A DNA stretch of 64,000 nt from an uncultured Chthonomonadaceae bacterium. GTDB lineage: Bacteria > Armatimonadota > Chthonomonadetes > Chthonomonadales > Chthonomonadaceae. The stretch is from contig CAWIEK010000053.1 in NCBI GenBank assembly GCA_963835065.1, positions 32,001-96,000 on the forward strand. The letters run 5' to 3'. This document shows positions 1 to 22,990 of this stretch, in pieces. The notes below the pieces were generated by a model. It saw nothing but the letters and a program-made list of their open reading frames with translations. It was not told where the DNA came from and ran no database searches. A program made the position numbers and the translations under genes. Within the stretch, counting starts at the first letter, position 1. Each line of letters opens with the position of its first letter.

Positions 1-867
1 TACTCCGCGTCCGGGTGCGCCGCTATCGCCAGGTTCGCCGGTATCGTCCAGGGCGTCGTCGTCCAGATAACGGCGTAACAGTTGAGGGGATTGCCGATTG
101 CCGATTGATCCTCTTCCGTATTCCCTTCCATGTTGAATACTCCCATCGGGTCATGGTGAAGCGGGAAGCGCACGTAGATGCTGTTGGACGTGTGATTTTC
201 GTACTCCACTTCCGCGTCGGCGAGGGCGGTTTCGCAGGTCGCGCACCAGAACACGGGTTTGAGGCCGCGATAGATAAAGCCCTGCAAGGCCAGTTCGCCG
301 AACACTTCAACGATTTTAGCCTCGAAGTCCTTGCTCATCGTTAAATACGGGATCGTCCCACTGCCCCCGTATGCCCAGCCGCTTGAACTGTTCGCGCTGC
401 GTGTCCACCCACTTTGCCGCGTACTCACGACACGCCTGCCGCAGTTCCACGCGCCCCACCGCCTGCTTTTCCTCGCGGAATTTACGCGATACAGCGTTTT
501 CGATGGGCATACCATGATTGTCCCAGCCCGGCACGTAGGGCGACGAATAGCCCTGCATCGTTCGGAAGCGGGTCACGATGTCTTTGGCGACTTTGTTGAG
601 CGCATGACCCAGGTGGATGTCGCCGTTGCTGTAGGGCGGGCCGTCGTGCAGGATGAATTTGCCTTTGGGCGCGTGTTTGGCGACGCTTTTGCGGTACACG
701 TCCAGGCTGTCCCAACGCGCCTGCACATCCGGCTCTTTGGCGGGCAGATTGCCCCGCTGCGGAAACGCGCCGGGGTCTTTGTCATTGAGCGTGATGTTGA
801 GCGTGCCGCGATAATCGCGCTTCTCAGAAGTCGGTTGTTCTTGATCGGGTCGAACGGTAGTCGTCAT
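1..867 (-). CDS. ileS: Isoleucine--tRNA ligase, N-terminal part (runs off the window; apparent frameshift near 345)
   Basis: [22 protein letters not shown] (HIGH motif) and [11 protein letters not shown]. After a frame change it continues [12 protein letters not shown]...AEVEY...[17 protein letters not shown] at 867 with GAGGA upstream. Confidence 0.95.
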
Positions 868-892
868 TGTAAAAGTCCTCAATACGGTTTTC

Positions 893-1219
893 ACCACCCG
901 CTCCGCTAGAGGCACAGAGGCACAGAGGGGAAGAAAAGAAGAAAAGAAGAAGAGAAGAAAAGGAGATAGGGAACCGCGAAACACACGAAATAAACGAAAA
1001 AAGACGAAAAGAACACAAATAAATTTACAGATACCACCGCATATTTAGAACAAACAGGCTTACCTTCTCGGTTTTTAATCCTGCAAATCCCGTTAATCCT
1101 GTCTATTTCTTTTGTTCTTTTTTCGTCTTGGTTCGTGTGTTTCGCGGTTCCCCAGTTTCTCTCTTTCTCGTATTGGCTTTTCCTCTGTGTCTCTGTGCCT
1201 CTAGCCGTAGGCGGGTGGT
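893..1219. repeat. Nested inverted-repeat mini-element built from 9-nt tandem repeats
   Basis: Outer arms 893-929 and 1182-1219 (AGAGGCACAGAGGCACAGAGG / CCTCTGTGTCTCTGTGCCTCT). Inner arms 969-989 and 1132-1152 are a perfect 21-bp inverted repeat. Central AATCCTGCA-AATCCCGTT-AATCCTGTC at 1077-1103. Confidence 0.85.
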
Positions 1220-3243: not shown

Positions 3244-3630
3244 TTATGCGGAGAGAGTGATGAGGCCGTTCTGAAAATCCAGCGTCAACGCGCGGTTGCG
3301 GAAGAAATCAAGCCCAAGTACGCCGTCAACAGACATGGACGGCGGCAAGGTATGCGCGACGACGGAAAACTGAAGCCGTTCCTGATCCAATGCTTCCACT
3401 TTGTCAACAGTCAGCCGGGATACGGCTTCCACGCTGCTTCCCGTCGTCATAGACACGGATTTCGGCTGCGCGTCAGGATCGTAGCCGATGGAAACAAGCA
3501 TCGCCTTACTGATGACCGTTGAAGACGAACCTGTATCCAGCGCAAGAGAAGATTGCACCATGCCGGTAGGTCCGTGAAGCGTTACCGGCACGACAATAAG
3601 ACCGTACTGCCCGTTAAAATTAGTTGTCAT
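3244..3630 (-). CDS. Retropepsin-like (clan AA) aspartyl protease
   Basis: [12 protein letters not shown] and DGVLGLDFF motifs. Confidence 0.9.
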
Positions 3631-3639
3631 GGTATCGGC

Positions 3640-3963
3640 TCAGTAGTTAAGAAGAATGTTGTCGGGAGTCGGACCCATATAGAGAAACGCCGAATGTTTC
3701 GGACGCAGGCGCATCGCCATTTGATCTCTTTCCTCCCGGTTTTTGCTGTGGCACAGAACTTTGCCACCCGCTACTTGCTTGTGTTCATCCAGATACGGGT
3801 CTTCGAGCAGCACCCATTCGCCGTCGAATTGCTTTTTGATTTCCTCCAGCGTCATAACTTCGTTCATGGCCTCGCGGCTCTCCTCCGGCGCGGCTTCACC
3901 GGACAAACGCGCCACTTTCTGTTCCAAAAGCGCAAGCCGTTCTTCGATTGTCGGGGTTGTCAT
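3640..3963 (-). CDS. Small DUF5678-like partner protein with an antitoxin-derived N-terminus
   Basis: FDGEWVLLEDP...GKVLCHSKNREE core. First 28 aa are identical to those of the 4501-4758 protein. Confidence 0.65.
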   Translation of the reverse strand: MTTPTIEERLALLEQKVARLSGEAAPEESREAMNEVMTLEEIKKQFDGEWVLLEDPYLDEHKQVAGGKVLCHSKNREERDQMAMRLRPKHSAFLYMGPTPDNILLNY

Positions 3964-4091: not shown

Positions 4092-4514
4092 TTATGCCGA
4101 CCAATCTTCAACGCGCAGATTGGGCACTTTGCCGAAGTCGGACGAGTTGCGGGAAACCAGCGTGAAGTTATTGGCAAGAGCGATGGACGCAATCTTCAAG
4201 TCCATTGTGCCCATTCGCAGCCGTTGAATCCAGAGATTCTGGAATACCGCGATTGCGGAATCATCAAAGGGCAGAATAGGCGTAGCGCAGTAATATCGCA
4301 GCATCCTGCCTAACTCGTAGTATTTGGACTTTTGGCGCTCCGGGGAACGCGCGGCGGCAATCTCGGCAAGCCAGCCGCGCATTTGTTCCTCGTAACTGAC
4401 AATGCAGACAGTGACTTCCGCAGGAGGAACAACAGCAATTCGGCGGACAATCCGCCCGCTTTCTGCTCCGCCCCTTGCGAGCAGCGAAATGTGATCGGTA
4501 TCAAGAAGATACAT
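4092..4514 (-). CDS. vapC: PIN-domain VapC toxin
   Basis: MYLLDTDHIS, YEEQMRG, GTMDLKIASIA, LVSRNSSDF, EDW. Confidence 0.92.
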   Translation of the reverse strand: MYLLDTDHISLLARGGAESGRIVRRIAVVPPAEVTVCIVSYEEQMRGWLAEIAAARSPERQKSKYYELGRMLRYYCATPILPFDDSAIAVFQNLWIQRLRMGTMDLKIASIALANNFTLVSRNSSDFGKVPNLRVEDWSA

Positions 4515-4758
4515 GGTTTTCGCCTTCTGCAATTTCGTTTTCTTCGTAGGCGGTGGGTTGTGAGCGGCGGTATTCCGCGCCGCGCTCCATAGCCGCATCA
4601 AAGTCAGGATTATCTTTGAATGCGCCGACCCATTGCTCCCACCAGGGGGCGGGCCTAATCTGCGGCGCGGCAGTTTCCTCCGGCGCGGCTTCGCCGGACA
4701 AACGCGCCACTTTCTGTTCCAAAAGGGCCAGCCGTTCTTCGATTGTGGGTGTCGTCAT
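4501..4758 (-). CDS. Putative antitoxin
   Basis: Overlaps the vapC start. TIEERLALLEQKVARL...PWWEQWVGAFKDNPDFDAAM. AGGAGG RBS and TATAAT at 4779-4784. Confidence 0.8.
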   Translation of the reverse strand: MTTPTIEERLALLEQKVARLSGEAAPEETAAPQIRPAPWWEQWVGAFKDNPDFDAAMERGAEYRRSQPTAYEENEIAEGENHVSS

Positions 4759-5245: not shown

Positions 5246-8078
5246 TCAGGAATTCGGTTCGCCAAACTCCGCGTCAAGATACTCTTGTACGAGGTTGTCG
5301 AAACCGATGGACAGCCACGCAACGCGGGCGGCGGCGACATGCGCCTGCTGTGTGGCGGCATCGGGCGCGACTTGCGCCAGGCGGTAGCGCGTGACGCCGA
5401 TGGAATACGGTTCCGGTATTTGCGCGTACAGGCGTAACGCCTCCTCATAGCGCAGACGAGCCACATCGTTGTTTGCGCGCGAGCGCGCAATGTCGCCTAA
5501 ACTCTGGATGCAATTCGCCTGCCCCAACACATCGCCGACATTCTCATACAAGGGTTGCGCCTGTTCGTACAAGCGGCGGGCTTGTTCATGCTCGGAACGC
5601 GCCAGCGCAATGTCGCCTAAACTCTGGATACAATTCGCCTGCCCCAACACAGAGCCGACATTCTCATACAAGGGTTGCGCTTGTTCGTACAAGCGGCGGG
5701 CTTGTTCGTGTTCGGAACGCGCCAGCGCAATGTCGCCTAAACTCTGGATGCAGTTCGCCTGCCCCAACACAGAGCCGACATTCTCATACAAGGGTTGCGC
5801 TTGCTCGTACAAGCGGCGGGCTTGTTCGTGTTCGGAACGCGCCAGCGCAATGTCGCCTAAACTCTGGATGCAGTTCGCCTGCCCCAACACAGAGCCGACA
5901 TTCTCATACAAGGGTTGCGCCTGTTCGTACAAGCGGCGGGCTTGTTCGTGTTCGGAACGCGCCAGCGCAATGTCGCCTAAACTCTGGATGCAGTTCGCCT
6001 GCCCCAACACATCGCCGACCTGTACAAAGAGCGGCTGCGCCTGTTCGTACAAGCGGCGGGCTTGTTCGTGTTCGGAACGGCGCAGCGCAATGTCGCCTAA
6101 ACTACTGGATGCAGTTCGCCTGCCCCAACACATCGCCGACGCGCAACGCTGCGCGTTGCGCGGATTCCTGCAATTGAATTGCTTCCGCGCCGTAGATGCT
6201 CAGGTAGAGGAAATCGCGCAGGGAAGAGGCCAGAGGCATCAGCGCCTCCCAGTAGTCATTCGCTTGCTCCGCGAATTCAGCGGCGCGGAGGGCGTTGCGC
6301 CATTCAGCCCGCAGCACGGCATATTGTTCCGGGAGGTTGATGTTTCCATTTGCCTGTATCAACTGGACGTAGTGGGCAACGTACCGCTGCTGTATCGCCT
6401 CGGCATCCTGTGGCATTTCGGCGCGTAACCGCCGCAGGGCATACTCGCGGAACACGGGCAGCAGGCGATAGCGCACGATGTCGTCGGCTTCGCGGCTTTC
6501 CAGCAGGTGTATGTGGTTCCACTTGACCAGCAGCGCGTCGGCAACGCCGCAAATCGCTTCCGCCGCGTCCGGGGCGAAGTCGTAGGCGAAGATTCCCAGA
6601 CGCGGAAACAGCGCCTGCTGCGCGTCGGGGAGGGTCTGCACCGACCAGTGGATGCAGGCTTCCATGCTGACGTGGCGCAGACTGTCGGCGCGGGCATAGC
6701 CGTATTCCTCGCGCGTTTTTTGCCAATCCAGCAGGCTGTCGCTCAGGCCGTCGGCGATCTGTTTGAGCGTCTTCATCTGGCGCAGCGCGGCGGTCAACTC
6801 GATGCCGAGCGGAAACCCTGCCGTATGTTCCAGAATACGGCGCAGCGAGTTCACGTCGCTGATGTCCTTTACGGGCCGGTGCTGCTCCACGCGCGCCCGG
6901 AACAACTTGCAGCCGTCCAATGCCTCCATGTTTTCCCCGTCATGCGGCACGGGCAGGCCGGGAATCTCGTATGTTTCGCTGAACGGTTCCAGCATGATTT
7001 TGTCGCGGCTGGTGACGAGCCACCGCATGGCGTCCACGTTCTGAATCAGGTCGCCGAGCCAGCGCAGCGTAGCGGGATTGACCATGCTTTCGCCGTTGTC
7101 CAGAAACATCAGCGTGGACGCGCGGGTTTGCAGATGGTTTTCCAGCCGGGTTTTGCCGTTCGCGTCGGAGGCAAGCGGCTCCTCCATAACGGGTTTCGGG
7201 GCCTCAATGGCGCGGGCAATCGCTCCGGCCAGCAATTCGGGCGTCACCTTGTCGGGCGCGTTGCCGAACTCCCGGTCGAGCGACACGCCATGAATGTTGC
7301 CCCGGAAGTCGCCGCACACGGCCAGAATGGTTTGGATGGCAAGCCGGGTTTTACCGATGCCGCCCGGTCCGTGCAGCGTCAGGAGGGGTTTTTTGCCCCG
7401 CAGCCACGTTACCACGTCCTCAATCTGCCGGTCACGTCCGATGAATTTATTGCCTTCGCGCCGCATCCACGCGGGCAGCCAGCGCGTACCGGGTTCGCGC
7501 GGTTCCTGCCCCGCATACCACAGCAGTTCGTGAACCGTTTCGGGCTGCTGATGGTAGCTCTTGATATAGCGGTTGGGCCAGGGATAAAAGTCGTAGACCT
7601 GCCGACTGCCCGCGCGGTCATGGGCGGACGCCGACACGAGTATCTGCCCGCCCTTGCCCAAGTCTTCCACGCGCTTGGCGTAATTGATGTCCTCGCCATG
7701 ATACAGCCCGGCGGCGTCCGGCTTCATGTCTTTTTCCGCGCGATGCAGGCCGATGCGTATCTTGATTGTCCATGTCACGCCGTTTCGCGTACAGGTAATG
7801 GGCGCTTGCGTCAGACGTTCCTGCATGGCGCGGGCGCAGGCCAGCGCCTCGTCCACATGCTGAAACACGATCATCAGGCTGTCGCCGGCAGGCGTGCCGT
7901 TTTCGTAGCCGTTGTGTTCCGGCGCGTTCAGGCACTCGCGGAGAACGTCAAAATGCGGGTCGCGCAGTTCGCCGTGATAGAGAGCGTCGCCAAGCGCCTT
8001 GTTCATCAGCGACGAGTCCTCAACATCGGTAAACAAGATGGTGACGCTGCCATGCGGCAGTGGGGCGGGCGGTGTCAT
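5246..8078 (-). CDS. Class III nucleotide cyclase - NB-ARC/STAND NTPase - TPR protein (one extra base near 6104)
   Basis: Cyclase motifs TILFTDVEDS, GDSLMIVF, IRIGLH, DINYAKRVE. Walker A GPGGIGKT, Walker B MFLDNGE, GFPLGIEL. TPR units GDVLGQANCIQSLGDIA. The unit at 6100-6112 reads AACTACTGG where the other units read AACTCTGG. Confidence 0.9.
5484..6140 (-). repeat. 120-bp tandem repeats (about 5.5 near-identical units) encoding TPRs
   Basis: Alternating 60-nt lines recur almost verbatim from 5521 to 6120. Confidence 0.95.
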
Positions 8079-11020: not shown

Positions 11021-12256
11021 GTGTACATAGACCGATTGACAGTGGAAAATTTTCGATGTTTTGAGCAAGTCGAGATGGATTTCAATTGGCCTGACTGGCA
11101 TGGTTGGGCGGATTGGGCAAGCAAGACAGAACTACGCCTGCCCAACATAAATCTGCTCATCGGAAACAATGGAACAGGTAAGACAACTACATTTCAGGCG
11201 CTTGTCATAAGCGCGTTGCGAGTAATTTTAGGCACAAATTCTTCCGGCTTTCGGACGGACCGAATCATACGCCATACTCAGGAAACTGCTGATGTAAGCG
11301 CCAGAATAATGCGCTCGGAAATGGACAAGGGCGATGAGCCGGACAAAAGTGACATTCTCCCCGCCCTGAGTGGAGTCAAGGCAAATGCGACAATCAAACG
11401 CCAACAGAGTACGGAATTTATAGAAATGCGCGGGTCTACGCCCAAATGGGCCGACATTTTATATGATGACAAACATCCCGGTCTATTCATTGCTGCTTAC
11501 GGCGCAGGCCGTAGAACCGAGCGCCCGGAGGCTTACAATGAACGTTTACGCGCGGTTCGTTATCAACGGGTCGCTTCTCTCTTTGAGGCGCATGTTGGCT
11601 TAATTCCAGCCTCCAGAGCCTTTACACAATGCCGCGCGCATGAAAGGTGGGAAGAAGTTATCTTCCTTATAAACGAGTTGCTGCCTCTCCCTGTTCGTTT
11701 AACGGAGAAACTTGAAGATGACATTGAGCCTTTGTTCGATTACGGTGGCATACCTCTTCCGGCGAGCTACTTATCGGATGGCTATCGCTTGTTTGTTAGT
11801 TGGGTGATTGATTTGCTCACACACTTAGCGCTTGTCCTGCCCAAAAGGTACAGACTCAATGAAGCCACAGGAATAGTCATTGTTGATGAGGTTGATCTGT
11901 TCCTTGCGCCTCGGTGGCAGCGAACAGTGCTGGAATCTCTTTCGCGTACCTTTCCTGGCTTGCAATGGCTATGCAGTACACACAGCCCCCTCGTCGCCGG
12001 TTCACTTGACAATGACAACATTTATATCCTGGAACAAGACTCTTCCTATACCTCCTATGTGCGCCGTCCAACAAGCAAATTCGAGGGTAGAAGCGTGGAC
12101 GAAGTTCTAATAGAATTGTTTGATGTACAACAGCCGCGTTCGCCGCAGCTACAGCGGCAACTCAGTGACCTGGCGGAACAAGCCATGAATGGCGATTTAG
12201 ATGCTTCTTTACTCTATCTGCGCCGTCTCAATGAAGGGTCCAGACCGCTCCGATGA
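11021..12256 (+). CDS. AAA_15/AAA_21-type ABC ATPase (PtuA/Septu-like)
   Basis: MYIDRLTVENFRCFE, GNNGTGKTT, AYGAGR, LSDGYR, IVDEVD, STHSP. GC visibly lower than the flanks. Confidence 0.85.
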   Translation: MYIDRLTVENFRCFEQVEMDFNWPDWHGWADWASKTELRLPNINLLIGNNGTGKTTTFQALVISALRVILGTNSSGFRTDRIIRHTQETADVSARIMRSEMDKGDEPDKSDILPALSGVKANATIKRQQSTEFIEMRGSTPKWADILYDDKHPGLFIAAYGAGRRTERPEAYNERLRAVRYQRVASLFEAHVGLIPASRAFTQCRAHERWEEVIFLINELLPLPVRLTEKLEDDIEPLFDYGGIPLPASYLSDGYRLFVSWVIDLLTHLALVLPKRYRLNEATGIVIVDEVDLFLAPRWQRTVLESLSRTFPGLQWLCSTHSPLVAGSLDNDNIYILEQDSSYTSYVRRPTSKFEGRSVDEVLIELFDVQQPRSPQLQRQLSDLAEQAMNGDLDASLLYLRRLNEGSRPLR

Positions 12257-13182
12257 TTCAATACCCTCTTGCTTTGCGAGAATTATCCCGTATTGTCAGC
12301 CGCAGGTTGCCAACAACACTCAATCAAGATGGTAAACCTCGCAAAAATGGCCGTGTCGCCTGGCGTATTCAGGCACGACAACAGACACAGCAGTTGCGAA
12401 GCCAAAGAACTTATAATCTTGATAAAGACTATGAAATTTGGCCGGAACTGAAGGATATATTTGCGGGCATACAGGGCGACAAGTGCGCTTTCTGTGAAAA
12501 GAGACTTCCTGATCATAGGAGTGGTCGCGTTGGTGGTGATATTGAGCATTACAGGCCGAAGAACGGCGTAGTGGCATGGCCTACCACGCACCCTATACCT
12601 GTGGGAAAGTCGGACACAGACTGCTACTATTTGCTTGCGTTCCATCTTCGCAATTATCTGCTTTCTTGCGGCATTTGCAATCAGGACTACAAACGTAACT
12701 ATTTTCCCATTGCAGGGCAGCGCTGCCCTGCACATTCCTGCCGTCCTCGTGATCTGCTTGCTGAACGCCCTTATCTTCTACATCCGCTGGATCCCAATGA
12801 TGAAGACCCGGAAGAATTAATTGAGTTTATAGGAATAGTCCCTGTGCCAAGAACTGCGAAGAATACGCCTTCTTATTGGCGGGCTGTAGTAACAATAGAA
12901 CTGCTTGGACTGACTGGCGGCAATCGCTTCGACTTAGATTTAGAGCGCGCAACAACAATTGTTTGTCTAAGCTTGGCACTAAAACTTCAAGCCAGCAAAG
13001 GAAACGATCCAGACGTCGTATTTACACTCAACGGATTAACAAACGACTCTCTGCCACATCGCAATTGCGCTCGTAGCTTCAAAAGACTGTATGATAGTGA
13101 TCCCATCCTGGCTGCGCATGTCGCCCGGGAAGCCCTAAAAATTGTAGATGACGATCAGCGTCGCAGACGTCGGGTAAATTGA
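12253..13182 (+). CDS. HNH endonuclease (PtuB-like)
   Basis: KCAFCE, DIEHYRPK, NYLLSCGICN, KRNYFP, LLHPLD..DPEE. ATGA-coupled to the ATPase. Confidence 0.85.
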   Translation: MIQYPLALRELSRIVSRRLPTTLNQDGKPRKNGRVAWRIQARQQTQQLRSQRTYNLDKDYEIWPELKDIFAGIQGDKCAFCEKRLPDHRSGRVGGDIEHYRPKNGVVAWPTTHPIPVGKSDTDCYYLLAFHLRNYLLSCGICNQDYKRNYFPIAGQRCPAHSCRPRDLLAERPYLLHPLDPNDEDPEELIEFIGIVPVPRTAKNTPSYWRAVVTIELLGLTGGNRFDLDLERATTIVCLSLALKLQASKGNDPDVVFTLNGLTNDSLPHRNCARSFKRLYDSDPILAAHVAREALKIVDDDQRRRRRVN

Positions 13183-13188
13183 AATACT

Positions 13189-14521
13189 ATGAACGATACG
13201 GAAGCATTGAAGAATTATGTGCGGGCGGAAGATGGGGCGCTGCAATGGACGCTGCGCGGCGCGTCCCAACATGTGTACGCCACTATTTATGAGTTCGCGC
13301 TGACTTCGCAAATCTGGCAGGGACGCGCCTGGACGCACCGCCTGCAATTGTTCGTGCCGCATACGCCCCATGCGACGAAGCCTGACTCCGACATGCCTAT
13401 GGTGGTAAATTCGGCGGCGGACGCGGTTTTGCTGTACATCACCACGCAGGGCGGCAGCGCGGAAACCGAATTGGGCGTACAGGCGTGCGCGGCAACGGGC
13501 ATCGCCTGCGCTTTTTTGTACGATGTGCCCAACCAGCCGCTGTTTGAGGGCTTGATGGAAGATGCGCTGATTGCCCATACGTTTGTTCGCTATCTGGAAA
13601 CGGAGGACGCGACATGGCCCCTGCTGTTCCCGATGGTGAAAAGCGTAACGCGGGCAATGGACGCTTTGCAGGCGTTCAGCAGGGAAGCGTCCAACGCCAA
13701 AACGGTTCCCAATACGGCAAACGCAACCGTGCAGAATACTGCTCTTGTTCCCTTCACGCGCTTCCTGATTACGGGAGCCTCCAAACGGGGCTGGACCTCG
13801 TGGCTGACGGCTGTTGCCGAAGCGGAAACCGGGCGCGTGGCGGCGATTGCGCCGATGGTCTATGACAATCTCAACCTCCTGGCGCAGATGCCGCACCAAC
13901 GGGAAGTTACGGGCGGGTACAGCGCGTCCATCCACGATTATACCGAGCTGGACTTGCAGGCGCGCATGGCAACGCCCGAAGGCGCGCAATTGGCGCAAAT
14001 GGTGGACCCGTATACTTACCTTGACCGCCTGACGCTGCCCAAATTGATTATCAACGGCGCGAACGACTCCGTACTGGATGACCGATGCGCTCAATCTCTA
14101 CTGGCCCGCCCTGCCCGCGCCCAAGCACGTTTTGTACGCGCCGAACACGGGCCACTTTTTGGGCGATACCGCCCGCGTGTATGCCACGCTCGTCGCCTTC
14201 GTGCGCGCGGTTGTGGCCGACGACGCCCTGCCCGCGCCCGTTCTGAACGTGACGGCGACGGAGAGTTTTGTTACCATCAACGCCGGAAACATAACCGAAG
14301 ATGTGCGTCTTTGGGTTGCTTATTCCGCTTCCCGCGATTTTCGGGGCGCGTTCTGGAAATCGCCAACACATACGCCACGTGGCAAAGGGGAGGTATGGAC
14401 AACGACGGTTCGCAAACCTTCCGATGGTTTCATGGCGCTATTCGGCGAATTCGGCTTTGTGTATGACGGCTTGCCGTACACGCTTTCCACGCCAATAAAT
14501 ATTTTTTCCGATGCAGCTTAA
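13189..14521 (+). CDS. PhoPQ-activated PqaA-family hydrolase (frameshift near 14070)
   Basis: LTSQIWQG, DVPNQP, WPLLFPMVKS, GASKRGWTSW, VDPYTY, INGAND / WMTDALNLYW, PNTGH. Confidence 0.85.
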
Positions 14522-17161: not shown

Positions 17162-17395
17162 ACCGTTCCTTTCGGCTTTGTGTCACAGCATTACGCATAG
17201 CAACAAACGTTACCTGCATGGAAGCAAGTGGGCGATGCCCTCCCATAGTTCGGGTGCTTCCAGCGCATCGGCCAAATTTCTAACCCATGTTTCGATTCGC
17301 TTATCTGCCACCATGATACATCTATTATAGCGCAGATTCGCTGACAAGAGCGGGCTTTTGTCGTTTTATTATTTCGTTTCGTGTATACTGATATC

Positions 17396-20300
17396 ATGTT
17401 GAACTCTCTGATTGCCGCCAAAGTCCATGCCTGGTTTCAGCGCGAAGATTGCCCCGTTCGGCAGATCATTACGCACATCGAAACGGCGCGATTTTTTCGG
17501 GACGCGCAGATCGAAGCAATCAAGACGTATCTGTTTTTGAAAATCGAAGGCGGCAACCGTCCGCTGTGGCAGTTGTTTGCCGAAGGCTTTTTCAGTTCGC
17601 GGGAAGATTTGTCGCGCCTGGCGCTGCGTCAGGATACGCGCGAACTGCTGGAAACCGATACGGCGGCGCGGGCGCTGTTTGAGTTTACACGCCTCAAAGC
17701 CAATGGCGCGGCGAAAACCCTGCTGCCGGAACTGGAAAGGTTTCTGCTCGACCATGTCGCCGAAGTGGATTGCCCCGCCGTCATCAAGCAGTTATTCTAC
17801 GGCGTGGAGTACCCGGATTACCTGTTCAGCCTGCCGATGGGCGCGGGCAAAACGTTTCTGATGGCGGCGTTTATCTATCTGGATTTGTACTTCGCGCAGA
17901 ATGAACCTGCCAACAAAGCCTTTGCGCATAATTTTCTGCTGCTCGTCCCTTCCGGCCTCAAATCGTCCATTATTCCCAGTTTGAAAACCATTGAAAAGTT
18001 CGATCCGGCCTGGGTACTGCCTGAACCGGCGGCTTCCAATGTTCGCAAATTAATTAAATTCGAGATTCTGGATCAGCCCAAATCCGGCAGCAAAAGCAAC
18101 CGGGCGCGTAACCCCAACGCGCAGAAAATCAGCCGCTATCAGCCGTTCGACGCTCTGATGGGCCTGGTGATGGTGACGAACGCGGAAAAGGTGGTGCTGG
18201 ATCAGGCCAAGTTCGACGCGCAGATGCGCCTTGTGGAGCCGACCGAAGACGAAAAAGACAAAGCCGCCAACGAATTGCGCAACCTGATCGGCAAAGTGCC
18301 CAACCTGCAAATCCTGATTGACGAAGTGCATCACGCGGCAACCGATGAAATCAAACTGCGGCAGGTAGTCAACCAATGGCAAAAAGGCAACGCCAAAAAC
18401 CCAACACCTGAACACCGAACACCGAACACCGGCAACATTAACGGCGTTCTCGGCTTTTCCGGCACACCCTACCTGTCCTCACCCGAAGAAGTGACTATTG
18501 CGCCGAAAATGGCGGTGAAGTTCGCGCAGATTACGAACACGGTTTTTTATTATCCGCTTACCCGCGCTATTGCCGGGTTTTTGAAGAAGCCGACCGTGCG
18601 GACGATCAGCGAATTGGAAGGCAGCCGGATTGTGCGGCATGGCGTGGCGGATTTTCTGGCCCAATACGGCGACAAGGTGTACGCTAATGATGCGACCGCC
18701 AAACTTGCCATTTACTGCGGCAGCATCGAACGCCTGGAAGAAGAGGTTTATCCCCTGCTCATCGGCGAAATGGGAATTGCGCCCGCGGACATTCTGAAAT
18801 ACCATCGAGGCAACGCCAAATACAGGATTTCACCCGCAGACGGAGGCCGGGTGGAAGTATTTGGATACCCCCTGTCGCGCAAGCGGATCATCCTGCTGGT
18901 GCAGATCGGCAAGGAGGGCTGGGATTGCCGGAGCCTGACGGGGGTAATCCTGTCGCAAAAAGGGGATTGCCCCACGAATATGGTGCTGCAAACAAGTTGC
19001 CGATGCCTGCGCGAAATGGACGGCGACAGGGCGGGCGCTAAGGAAACGGCGGGAATCTGGCTCAATGCCGACAACGCCAAAAGCCTGGACAAGCAGCTCA
19101 AAGAAGAACAGCACACGAGCATTGAAGAGATCAACCGATTGGGCAACAGCGATGCGGTTCCCCTGCGCCCCCGCTACAATCGCATGGACGCGCTGAAACT
19201 GCCGCCCGTAGAGTTTTATCAACTGCGCGTCCGCTATGAAAACCTGACGCTGGAACCCGCGCAGCCGCAGGAGGCCCTTCGCTCGGTAGATGCCGCCCGG
19301 TTTCGCGCCAACGCCGCCAGTGTTACCCGCAGCCTGACCGCAAGCGAAGCCGACAGCCGGTGGTTCCACAAACAGGAACAGGGCGAGATTGCCGACTTTT
19401 CCGCCTGGCTCCTGCAAATCGCCAAAAGCAGCCTGGGCGCAATTTCCCTCGCCGCCCTGCGCCCCCACGCCCTGAGTTACGCGCCATCTTCGACGCGATC
19501 ACGTATATCGAGGGAAAAGGAAAAAGGGAAAAGGGAAAAGAACAGAATACGGAAGAAGAGGATGCTCTATCAACTATCAACTATCAACTATCAACTCCTG
19601 CATCCTTCTTTAACGCCCTCTACGACCTGGACGCTATTGCCGCCGAGATACGGCTGGCGTTTTATGCGCGACGGACATTGAACTCTGCGAGCGAGATCGT
19701 TCCCGATACCGCTCGCCTGCTGATTGCGGAAAAACTGATGGCGATTGCCGCCGATAAGAAGAACGTATATCCGGGCGAAAGCGACGTAGAGCAGATGCGG
19801 GAAATGGACGCGGCGGGACAGACCGCGTTTCAGTACGCCGAGGAGCAGCGCGCCAAATTGGAACAGGTGCGGGAAATGGCGAAAGCGGCCAATCTGGACA
19901 TCAACCTGTTTGCCCTGCGCGACAATGCTGTTTCTGCCGCCGCGCAGAATAAAGACCGCTCGTTCCATTATGCGCCGTACAGCTTCGACAGCAGTTTTGA
20001 AATGAAGTTTTTGCAGGAAGCGCTTACCCTGCAAGCCCTGCGCGACGGGCAGTTGGAATTGTACTTTAACGGCGCGGGCGAACTGACGGAGTTTCGCATC
20101 GAATGTTACGCGCCCCGGCCCGGCGGCTGGAACAAAGTGGGCAAGTACACGCCCGACTTTCTGCTGGTAGAGCGCAAAAACGGAGCCATTCACCGCGCCC
20201 TTATTATCGAAACCAAAGGCAGCGGGTATGCCGACCAGAAAGCGTTTCTCGCCCGCCGCGATTTCGTGCAGTCCCACTTTCTGCAAATGAACAATGACAA

Positions 20301-20420
20301 ATTCGGCTACGCGCGTTTCGAGTACCTGTACCTGTAGCGACGCCGACGAGATACCAGCCAACCTCCGCAAATTGTGCGATGCGGCGGCAGAAATTCTTCA
20401 CGGACAAACCCATCCATGCC
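17396..20420 (+). CDS. res: Type III-like restriction subunit (SF2 helicase plus PD-(D/E)XK nuclease); several frameshifts, 3' end approximate
   Basis: LPMGAGKT, IDEVHH, FSGTP, GKEGWDC, then YTPDFLLVE...IIETKG in the shifted frame. Confidence 0.85.
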
Positions 20421-22990
20421 TGTTAAATATATTCCCTACGTTCCCAACACGACTGCCGGGCAGGCGATTCTGGACAACATCACCCGTACCCGCCGCGTCC
20501 TGCGCTACCGGGACAACGACAAAGTGCTGGACCACATCCGGCGCGGCCTGCCCCTGTACGAAACCGCCTGCGTGGAAACGGTGGGCACGGAGGATGCGTC
20601 GGGCAATCTGCTGCTGCGCGGCGAGTGCCTGTCCGCCTGCGCGTACCTCAAAGACAAGGGCATCGAACTGGATTTGGTGTACATTGACCCGCCGTTCGCG
20701 TCCGGGGCCGATTACGCCAAAAGCGTGTATCTGCGCCGCAATCCCAAACAAGCGCAAATGCTTGCCGACGCCGAGCAGGAATTGGAACTCGACGAACTCC
20801 GCGCCTTTGAAGAAAAAATGTACGGCGACATCTGGAACAAGGAAGACTACCTGAACTGGATGTTTGAAAATCTGACGGCCATCAAGTCCGTAATGAGCGA
20901 AACCGCCAGTATCTACGTGCATCTCGACGAACATATTGGGCATTACGTTAAGATTTTGCTGGATGAGGTTTTTGGTGAAGACAACTTCCAACGAGAGATT
21001 ATATGGGACATTCAGGTTTTATCTGGCTTCAAAACCAAAGCTCAAAACTGGATTAGAGGTCACGACATAATCTTCTACTACACCAAAAACGAAAACGCGA
21101 AAGTTTTCAATAAGTTGACACAACCTCACACTGAAAAATATCTCGCTATGTTCGACAGAGAAGACCCAGATGGCCGTAAATACCTGATTGCACATGGTAG
21201 TAAAAGATATAGAGATCAAATTGAAGACAAGGGTAAGAATCTATCTCAAAACAAAAGTGGCTCTGCAACGGGCAAGATGACCTCTTGCTTTAATACGTGC
21301 AACTTGCGGAACCACAGGAGGGCACAGGCGAGTTTGCAGGTTGCCAGGTAGTTGCTGGGCTTTTTGTCCCACCGGATGAGGATGCCGCGCCAACGCGACA
21401 GCCAAGCAAACGTGCGCTCCACCACCCAACGCCGCGCCGGATGCGTTTTCTCGCCCGCTTCGTCTTTCTTTTCTTCGCCAATGCGGCGAATGTGGGGCGT
21501 ATAGCCTGCTTTCTTAGCGGCTTCTTCCCCACGCGGATTGTCATAGCCTTTGTCCAGGCACAGGTTTTGAGGTTCTTCGGGCGTGGGCTGCGGACGGCAC
21601 ACCACCACCGCGCTGATCGTGGCCGCGAGCAGATGCGCGTCATTGGTGTTGGCGCTGCTGATACAAATGCCGGTCGGCCCGCCGTCGCCTTCCACTAAAA
21701 GGCTCTTTTTGACGCCTTGCTTCCCACGATCCGTGGGATTGGGACCGACACAGGCGTCGTCTTGTGCCCCTTTTTAGGCACACCGCGCGCTTTGCTCAGG
21801 CAGGCATCGGCAGATTGCCAGTCCCACTTTACGCCGCCCAAGAAGTCGCAATTGCGCAGAAGAACCGCCCACAACTTGCCGAACAAGTCCAGCTTCTCCC
21901 ACCGCTGCAAGGTGCGGTGGATGCTGGCATCGTCGCCAAACTCCTTGGGGAGTTGGTTCCATTGGCAGCCGGTACGCGCTCGGTAGATAATGCCGTTGAG
22001 AGCAAGACGGGCATCAATGCGCTTGCGTCCGCGTTTGCAAGGGGGATCGTACTGGTTGATCAACGCCTGAATGTGTTCCCATAACTCGTCGGGAACACGC
22101 CAGATCGTCGGTAAAGAGGGTGTCTGCGCCATAAGTCACTCCAAAAAAGTAGTCGTAACTTTATCATCGGCAGGCCAATGGACAAGCTGAAAACGCAGAT
22201 CGTCGGCTTGAAAAACGAGGACGGCCTGGACTCCTTTTGGGAAGGCGCGATACACGACTCAAACTGGGCATGATGCCCGTGTACCTGCCCAACCTGCTCG
22301 ACCACCAAACCAAAGTGCTGGACATACCGCTCGTCAACGCCGTTCTGCACGAAGCCCTGCCCAATCTGCCGGATGGGGTGAAGCAGGCCATTCTTTATTA
22401 CGTGGACATTTATGACCGGGCGGGCGTGGAGAAGTTTATCGCGGACGGAAAACATGACCGGCATCCAATTGGAACTGCGCGACCTCAAAGAAATCCTGGA
22501 TGAAATCGTTCTCAACGACGAGGCCGAATTTAACGTGACGGGAACGCGGGCGGCGCGTATACGGTGGAAATTGCCGCGTTTGCCAGTGACCGCCTGCAAG
22601 CCAAAATCAGCGAGTACAACCAGAAGAAAGGCTTGACCGGCAGGGCCAAAACGCCGCTCCTCACACCCGACGCGCCCGAAGCGGACAGTGACACGAACGG
22701 CGACAACGATGACGGAGAACCTGCCGCGCCGCGCCGCAAAACGCCGTTCACGCCCATACAGATCAGCCCGGACGGTTTGGAACTCATTGAATGGCTTAGT
22801 CTTGATTGCGCGGCGAGCGAAGGAAGCTGGCATTCCGACGCGGAAATCAAGATTGACAAAAAGGCTTCGTGACCCACGACGGACGGAAAACCAAAACCTT
22901 TTGGGACGCGAAAATCGCCGATGCTCGCAAGCCCCTGCGCCTGAAAATCCGCAACATCGCCGGGGACGAAAGTATTTTTAGTCTTGAACT
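20416..22990 (+). pseudogene. mod: Type III-like N6-adenine methyltransferase interrupted by an IS and internally deleted
   Basis: LVYIDPPF and IYVHLD..IGHYVK, then an AT-rich TRD cut at ~21235. The C-terminal part resumes at 22178 (MDKLKTQIVGL...IRNIAGDE). No TQKP or DxFxGSG motif I is visible. Confidence 0.85.
21234..22163 (-). mobile_element. IS5-family element, two-ORF transposase with a probable programmed -1 frameshift
   Basis: ORF A 22132-21695 (DELWEHI, GIIYRARTGCQW, WDWQSAD). ORF B has GPNPTDRGK, CLDKGYD, RWVVERTFAWL. Slippery AAAAAGGGG at 21775-21767. An IS5-like end is seen at 21234 (TAAGAATCTATCTC); the opposite end is not found. Confidence 0.92.

Follow-up and report, generated by a model that had tools for sequence, protein, structure and literature searches.

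What signal might a cyclase send when it is built into an NLR-like receptor and has lost the residues with which such enzymes usually recognise adenine? The question is raised by a gene on the minus strand (8078→5246) of a 64,000-nucleotide stretch of DNA, the window, from an uncultured Chthonomonadaceae bacterium (GCA_963835065.1, contig CAWIEK010000053.1, positions 32,001 to 96,000). Position numbers below are those of the window and residue numbers those of the 658-amino-acid product (P0001) of the first open reading frame (ORF) of the gene. The gene joins a class III nucleotide cyclase, a STAND nucleoside triphosphatase (NTPase) and a TPR sensor, and it belongs to a clade with members that lie directly behind PycTM or CNBD-DUF1003 membrane protein genes. 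We judge the chances to be evenly balanced that the cyclase-STAND-TPR proteins of this clade are NLR-gated cyclases that signal to membrane effectors, the window copy probably acting in trans and with relaxed base selection. The parts of the window gene are these:

7509 to 8078, minus strand: class III nucleotide cyclase domain, residues 1-190 (Pfam, alignment, predicted structure)
8025 to 8027, minus strand: D18, metal Asp of the FTD motif, kept
7893 to 7898, minus strand: Lys position, G61/T62, within a GTPAGD hairpin that carries a one-residue insertion (alignment)
7881 to 7883, minus strand: D66, metal Asp of the ENGTPAGD motif, kept
7704 to 7706, minus strand: Asp position, L125, in the LYHG motif (alignment)
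7683 to 7685, minus strand: N132, transition-state Asn of the INYAKR motif, kept
7671 to 7673, minus strand: R136, transition-state Arg of the same motif, kept
6399 to 7466, minus strand: STAND NTPase of the AP-ATPase/NB-ARC type, about residues 205-560 (domain scan, predicted model)
7347 to 7370, minus strand: Walker A of the STAND NTPase, GPGGIGKT
6105 to 6398, minus strand: residues 561-658, with a helical arm and the first part of the TPR sensor
6103 to 6104: one extra base that breaks the frame, missing from the remaining five copies of a 120-bp repeat
5246 to 6103, minus strand: C-terminal TPR sensor, repeats and capping segment

The first frame (8078-6102) matches Pfam Guanylate_cyc over residues 8-156 (7e-8) and NB-ARC/AAA over residues 211-451, and the second (6103-5246, 285 amino acids) matches TPR_12 (7e-31); the sensor is made of 5.5 near-identical 120-bp (40-amino-acid) repeats at 5485-6140. 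PF00211 scores above its cut-off in the cyclase domain, where R108 and K173 are likewise kept and an acidic D130 is typical of the clade. AlphaFold models of the cyclase and STAND parts are confident (pLDDT 93.7 and 92.9). The cyclase model has the class III fold and resembles the trypanosome cyclase 1fx4 (Z 23.7, root-mean-square deviation (rmsd) 2.2, 186 residues aligned), Ma1120 4wp9 (Z 23.3, rmsd 1.6, 162 aligned) and Rv1900c 1ybu (Z 22.6, rmsd 1.7, 161 aligned). The STAND part carries a Walker B (FLDNGE), TSR and GFPLGIE motifs and a winged helix, and its model resembles Apaf-1 3shf (Z 25.9, rmsd 4.2, 366 aligned), followed by 8bob, a STAND protein of the maltose system (Z 23.5), NRC1 8bv0 (22.6) and the archaeal STAND-TPR protein 6mfv (21.0). 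With Walker A and B, a helical domain, a winged helix and a repeat sensor (TPR_12), the protein has the make-up of an NLR-like receptor. The initial annotation of this DNA had described just such a protein, with both metal Asp residues and the Asn/Arg pair intact and the Lys and Asp positions altered, and its motifs are exactly as described there. A search of the ESM Atlas returned generic cyclase clusters only, a listing of RNA holders for the window gene gave none, and a promoter and terminator scan of the gene gave a signal no better than that from shuffled sequence.

Seven of the source genome's 34 class III cyclase ORFs, 18 of which are of the cyclase-STAND type, fall into one long-branch clade. 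With the addition of relatives and of hits from a search among 1.84 billion representatives, the clade reached 95 sampled members; counts of gene context cover those from outside the representative library, the source of roughly 60. Its support in cyclase trees built from growing samples was 0.997, 0.999 and 0.855. When the STAND domain was used on its own, without the cyclase columns, the window protein grouped with six PycTM-linked proteins at a node of 70 of the 157 rows (support 1.0, stem 0.65), and a five-row subgroup (0.983) united it with the PycTM-linked protein of genome G012. A close member is named as Chthonomonadales, an order of Armatimonadota, and the clade, which is well supported, is probably one of that phylum. 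Its presence is patchy: 21 members occur in six of the 42 genomes of the window's family, and two congeners have neither a clade gene nor the Septu pair described below at the mreB site. Two profile matches outside the clade (G275, G248) were dropped from the counts, as was a cyclase-NTPase (G244) that fell inside it only on a very long branch. On contig C2 of the source genome two clade paralogues stand in tandem (L043:8361-12971), and in the latter of them Glu replaces the second metal Asp.

The link to membrane effectors comes from the neighbourhoods of clade members. Searches for PycTM in overlapping samples of 301, 42 and 400 genomes gave 30 matches in 27 genomes, and seven of these lie directly 5' of a clade gene on the same strand, across four families (G000:C41 and G012:C223, both in the window's family, and G195, G129, G263, G284:C5 and G408). 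Of these, G195 and G129 are congeners that share a single site, and G408 came to light by way of its PycTM. The only PF18967 (PycTM) match in the source genome lies 97 bases upstream of the clade paralogue on contig C41, and stop and start codons overlap as ATGA at three (G195, G129, G263) of the four junctions inspected. Within the window's family PycTM occurs in just two of 42 genomes, both times before a clade gene; outside it, four of the five members found by clade search have a PycTM and the fifth is truncated by the end of its contig. Five of the clade-linked PycTMs were scanned and match PADLOC PycTM models with best E values from 1e-23 to 3e-30; a sequence search gave no solved relative for PycTM. 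The idea that the PycTM neighbours belong to a polyphosphate-kinase housekeeping type was discarded, there being no ppk gene among the annotated neighbours (five of the seven cassettes).

PycTM also keeps other company. Two of the 30 matches stand directly before a canonical Lys/Asp cyclase-STAND gene (G303, G284:C2). The arrangement of a PycTM directly ahead of a canonical Lys/Asp cyclase-STAND-TPR gene outside the clade (L118:5094-8425, L119:7196-10528) is an independent pairing that would imply gating of PycTM by cyclic AMP (cAMP). Two further matches adjoin a PycC-like cyclase. In G244 the gene after a divergent PycTM encodes a fusion of cyclase and NTPase that is itself very divergent (L076:1204-3341); in G356 a PycTM lies directly upstream of what reads as a SARP/BTAD-type regulator, with no cyclase seen (L181:2-2094); and tandem pairs of PycTM-family genes occur with no cyclase nearby in G073 and G045 (L120, L125).

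A second membrane partner is suggested by three clade members of the window's family. Directly before each lies a gene for a divergent CNBD-DUF1003 membrane protein whose phosphate-binding motif is intact:

L047, 7003 to 7860: CNBD-DUF1003 membrane protein before a clade paralogue
L170, 2022 to 2915: the same
L037, 7121 to 7963: the same

This protein is a candidate for an undescribed effector gated by cyclic mononucleotides (cNMPs), with a frameshifted relative on contig C14 of the source genome (G000:C14). The cyclases behind the three genes belong to different sub-branches, whereas two of the CNBD genes share about 70% identity, which suggests that sensors are swapped behind a constant effector. 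The source genome has 11 CNBD matches. The initial annotation had called for a search for cNMP-binding effectors near homologues, and PycTM or CNBD-DUF1003 proved to lie directly upstream of ten clade members, the window copy having neither.

In general, ligand binding makes STAND proteins oligomerise, and class III cyclases work as head-to-tail dimers with composite active sites. In the mechanism that we favour, the TPR repeats would bind a ligand, probably from a phage, and the STAND domain would oligomerise in response. The cyclase domains would then pair and make a cyclic nucleotide, which would open the membrane effector, be it PycTM or CNBD-DUF1003, with abortive infection as the predicted outcome. 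The window copy would act in trans, either on the single PycTM of contig C41 or on a CNBD-DUF1003 protein encoded on contig C1. The 3TM effector family has been described as a hexameric membrane channel with an abortive-infection-like defence (bioRxiv 10.64898/2026.08.12.744502). Of the proposal in the initial annotation, a sensor-activated cyclase that makes a non-cAMP messenger, the NLR-like architecture and, at family level, signalling to cNMP-type effectors are supported, and the specific non-cAMP product is not.

Several results weigh against this mechanism. No effector gene, PycTM or PycTIR, stands beside the window copy. The 21 family members include two behind PycTM, three behind CNBD-DUF1003, two that are cut off and 14, the window gene among them, with neither; G020, which is 98% complete and has five clade members, has no PycTM match. 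The seven PycTM pairings come from related genomes and so are not independent, the PycTM partners are not monophyletic in a FastTree analysis with weak deep nodes, and 18 of the 30 PycTM matches in the phylum adjoin no cyclase, from which it follows that the PycTM family has other roles too. A profile of the clade-linked PycTMs found 12 metagenome loci, six of them beside stand-alone PycC-like cyclases; the pairing with a STAND-cyclase was seen at none of the 12 and on no viral contig scanned. A scan of genome contigs gave no locus for the cyclase domain and two distant ones for PycTM. The window protein matches no PADLOC model, the PycC profiles included, at 1e-3, although three PycTM-linked clade relatives match PycC profiles weakly (8e-4 to 4e-6). 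The best STAND folds include the non-immune 8bob and 6mfv. The clade neighbourhoods are mostly housekeeping: when the 110 proteins encoded around 20 clade loci were compared with PADLOC at 1e-20, only a Uma2 nuclease, UvrA and a CHASE2 cyclase matched, two of these three spuriously. Absence of a defence-island association among homologues had been one part of the refuting test set by the initial annotation, and on that part its proposal fails for homologues.

Which base would such a cyclase read? In the pocket numbering of Ma1120 (K101, D157, A164 and R168; PMC4215837), K101 corresponds to G61 of the window protein by strand register and to T62 by HMMER alignment, while D157 corresponds to L125. 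The Lys and Asp/Thr with which canonical adenylyl cyclases contact adenine N1 and N6 are absent and, judged by alignment, neither the residue at the Lys position nor that at the Asp position can read adenine. Gly/Thr also replaces the Glu that guanylyl cyclases and PucC have at the Lys position (with Cys or Gly, or with Lys in PucC; PMC4215837, bioRxiv 10.64898/2026.08.12.744502). The pyrimidine-selecting residues of the PycC enzymes (PMC11224242) are missing as well: Y50/D94/R97 of BcPycC become F16, A64 and S67 in an alignment to 7R65, and F100/R142/Q144 of EaPycC become F16, G61/T62 and A64, the sole agreement being F16, where Phe is the usual residue. Set against adenylyl, guanylyl and PycC pockets, as the initial annotation had advised, the window pocket fits none of the three.

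The rest of the clade puts this pocket in perspective. D18 is kept in 81 of 84 sampled sequences, D66 in 91 of 93 and R136 in 92 of 94. The Lys position holds Gly (34), Gln (19) or Lys (18), the Asp position holds Asp (24), Glu (20), Leu (8) and others, and the Asn is kept in 63 of 94; basal members retain both Lys and Asp. In the window's ten-member branch Gly occupies the Lys position in nine and the GTPxGD hairpin is conserved in most, and the Asp position reads D in four, L in three and H, G or C in the remainder, two of the three Leu members being near-identical assemblies or close kin. The PycTM-linked branch that contains the C41 paralogue has mostly Gln or His with Glu, residues that together may still be able to recognise a purine. 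Enzymes with non-canonical residues can be active, as are Rv0386, with its Gln/Asn pocket, and Rv1900c. Beyond the clade, 241 cyclase domains, a hit-biased sample, include 96 with Asp at the Lys position, 89 with Gly at the Asp position and 95 with His at the Asn position. Loss of all three is also the rule in a large unrelated family (pattern VDTQGD...GYVGxDVH). The sequences P0006-P0032 and many of P0037-P0140 belong to a large cyclase-STAND-TPR family with Asp, Gly and His fixed at the three positions; its named members are from Actinomycetota, and we found no characterised member.

Selection on the clade cyclases is, from codon comparisons, purifying. Codons 1-200 of the window gene and of X1, a contig about 96% identical from a public run, differ by 15 synonymous and seven replacement codons, none of them at pocket residues, and in a paralogous orthologue pair the ratio of replacement to synonymous rates (dN/dS) is 0.19 for the cyclase (156 codons), 0.15 for STAND and 0.31 for TPR, compared with 0.04 for mreB and 0.16 for two accessory enzymes. 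Conserved catalytic residues together with drifting base-reading residues make relaxed base selection likelier than a switch to one new base, and the sequence points to an enzyme with conserved catalysis and relaxed reading, without identifying a new product. The odd pocket was rejected as a sign of a pyrimidine product: Lys/Asp-less cyclase-STAND proteins are common, the Asp position drifts within the branch, the residues fit neither guanylate nor Pycsar pockets, and Ma1120, which lacks the Asn, still prefers or retains the use of ATP when its Lys and Asp are mutated (PMC4215837). The specific non-cAMP product expected by the initial annotation is thus unsupported. From the sequence we regard cAMP or a purine mixture as somewhat the likelier product, little or no product as a lesser but real prospect, and a mainly pyrimidine product as improbable.

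A bolder form of the favoured mechanism, which is possible but which we hold to be doubtful, is that the clade represents an undescribed NLR-gated Pycsar. A phage-sensing TPR-STAND receptor with a fused cyclase would make a cNMP that opens a hexameric PycTM pore or CNBD-DUF1003; a single effector would answer to a set of scattered sensor paralogues (this genome has seven), and pockets (Lys/Asp, Gln or His/Glu, Gly/variable) would have diversified, non-cAMP messengers included, to escape the nucleotide sponges and nucleases of phages.

It is unlikely, though not markedly so, that the clade serves ordinary physiology, as adenylyl cyclases that, like those of the STAND type in mycobacteria, are gated by a metabolite or stress, supply CRP-type or membrane cNMP receptors and play no part in immunity. 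The abundance of class III and cyclase-STAND ORFs and CNBD matches in the source genome would suit such signalling, as would the housekeeping neighbourhoods of the homologues; Rv0386 is a physiological cyclase-ATPase-helix-turn-helix enzyme (PMC3938503) and STAND clades are described as switching between defence and non-defence (PMC13581612). Yet the tight coupling to a rare PycTM gene recurs, the clade is patchy, paralogues change behind one CNBD-DUF1003 gene and the TPR part evolves faster, all of which speak against such signalling.

We give a similarly low probability to the window gene being an orphaned paralogue with a weak or dead cyclase, used for dimerisation or nucleotide binding or simply decaying with a real frameshift. 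The Lys, Asp and Asn positions all vary in its ten-member branch, two members of which have altered metal Asp residues, and inactive cNMP cyclase domains occur in other conflict systems (PMC7159879). Nine of the 18 cyclase-STAND ORFs of the source genome are short or split, above the rate in conserved genes (frameshifts in six of 80 tested, 0.07 per kb), which keeps a recent strain-specific lesion in play. On the other side, every catalytic residue of the window protein is intact and X1, whose differences are mostly synonymous, crosses the indel junction in frame by phase arithmetic; P0003, a 98%-identical protein of another assembly, loses the frame at a different place, as expected of random assembly errors. 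The extra base near 6103 is, given the in-frame relative, probably an assembly error, and the strain-specific lesion is less likely. In X1, where the gene also lies beside mreB, there are about three fewer TPR repeats than in the window, a difference that may be either real variation or assembler collapse. Two other window genes are broken in ways that fit assembly indels: an aminoacyl-tRNA synthetase, IleRS-like by sequence reading, that ends after 222 amino acids (316-984, minus strand) and a PhoPQ-related gene split across two frames (13189-14521, plus strand).

The remaining proposal concerns the genes around the cyclase:

3244 to 3963, minus strand: a 107-amino-acid ORF and an aspartyl protease, the latter a PADLOC candidate (PDC-M08B, 4.7e-14)
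4092 to 4517, minus strand: VapC PIN toxin, a neighbour and not a conserved partner
4501 to 4758, minus strand: VapB-like antitoxin, likewise a neighbour and not a conserved partner
11021 to 13182, plus strand: Septu PtuA/PtuB pair after mreD (7.7e-106, 1.5e-61), an independent neighbour

The toxin-antitoxin pair and the protease are where the initial annotation had placed them, the PIN toxin within 0.5 kb of the cyclase gene and the protease 1.6 kb away; the Septu pair lies on the far side of mreBCD, 2.9 kb from where the cyclase gene starts. Random 2.8-kb windows fall within 3 kb of a PIN toxin, such a protease or Septu in 1.7%, 0.1% and 1.1% of cases, figures to be read with the fact that the finding was selected partly for these neighbours. 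The ORF before the protease (3640-3963) and the antitoxin (4501-4758), both on the minus strand, share their first 28 residues identically, suggesting recombining two-gene cassettes. As functional partners of the cyclase, which the initial annotation had hinted at, these genes were rejected: in X1 the block is replaced by 830 other bases, which also tells against the favoured mechanism; genes of these PIN or protease kinds lie near none of the other six clade paralogues of the source genome; and a domain scan found no cNMP-binding domain in them. That the window gene is a dedicated cyclase for a pyrimidine (cyclic CMP or cyclic UMP) or another new base, working with these adjacent genes, is thus very improbable, its near-constant Gly at the Lys position, its conserved hairpin, the hydrophobic residue that it shares with BcPycC (Val) at the Asp position and the proximity figures being outweighed by the missing PycC residues, the Asp retained in four branch members and the exchangeable neighbours without a cNMP-binding domain. 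Elsewhere in the window there is a type III restriction-modification-like locus (17381-21351, plus strand), with a ResIII ORF split from an endonuclease ORF and then a methyltransferase.

If the effector-linked mechanism is true, NLR-type pattern recognition and cyclic-mononucleotide signalling are joined in a two-gene cassette with the sensor inside the cyclase. To our knowledge, the way in which Pycsar-type cyclases are activated by phage infection is poorly resolved. The series of pockets behind one effector family (Lys/Asp, Gln or His/Glu, Gly/variable) would also provide a panel for base choice by the cyclase and for the cNMP that gates PycTM. This significance rests on the family-level cassette; the window copy taken alone is one orphan paralogue with a common loss of Lys and Asp. 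Fusions of cyclase and STAND are long known (Rv0386; PMC3938503), and STAND-fused immune cyclases are already predicted in print (bioRxiv 10.64898/2026.08.12.744502). Our literature search found no description of an operon of PycTM with a cyclase-STAND-TPR gene, the figure and supplements of the Pucsar preprint being outside its scope; the pairing may already be drawn in Figure 1A/Table S1 of that preprint.

Pycsar and Pucsar consist of a PycC or PucC cyclase and a 3TM effector of the pJV1-SpdB3 family, PycTM or PucTM (PMC11224242, bioRxiv 10.64898/2026.08.12.744502). Like them the clade has a class III cyclase with two metal Asp residues, and seven relatives adjoin a PADLOC-matching PycTM-family gene. 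Unlike the stand-alone Pycsar cyclase, that of the clade is fused to STAND-TPR and is of adenylyl cyclase-STAND descent, and the window copy has neither the base-reading residues of PycC or PucC nor an adjacent effector. Because it fails in these three respects, the window protein, as read from its sequence, is not a Pycsar member even if it works like an NLR-gated one. Closer in layout is 'Immune clade 1' of the Pucsar preprint, STAND-fused cNMP cyclases with a role in immunity that is predicted only: there too an AP-ATPase-type STAND is joined to the cyclase and the branches are long. The text of the preprint reports no substrate or activity for that clade, and it mentions 3TM effectors in the context of the Pycsar clade without tying them explicitly to the STAND-fused one (bioRxiv 10.64898/2026.08.12.744502).

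The nearest relatives by fold are the mycobacterial non-canonical cyclases Rv0386 (adenylyl cyclase-ATPase-helix-turn-helix), Rv1900c and Ma1120, from which the window protein differs in its TPR sensor, where Rv0386 has a helix-turn-helix output, in its Gly/Leu pocket and in its family link to membrane effectors. With Avs proteins and other prokaryotic NLRs (PMC13581612) it shares the effector-STAND-TPR layout and a variable repeat sensor. No Avs match was found in PADLOC v2.0, which predates Avs7-21, or among the 50 fold rows listed, and in PMC13581612 the words 'cyclase', 'Pycsar' and 'PycTM' are absent from the main text, as are 'cyclase' and 'PycTM' from seven supplements. That study looks for a defence gene within 5 kb (PMC13581612); the window has Septu at 2.9 kb, and the other 20 clade loci have nothing convincing besides the effector itself. 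The effector of an Avs protein kills directly, whereas the N-terminal domain of the window protein would make a diffusible messenger.

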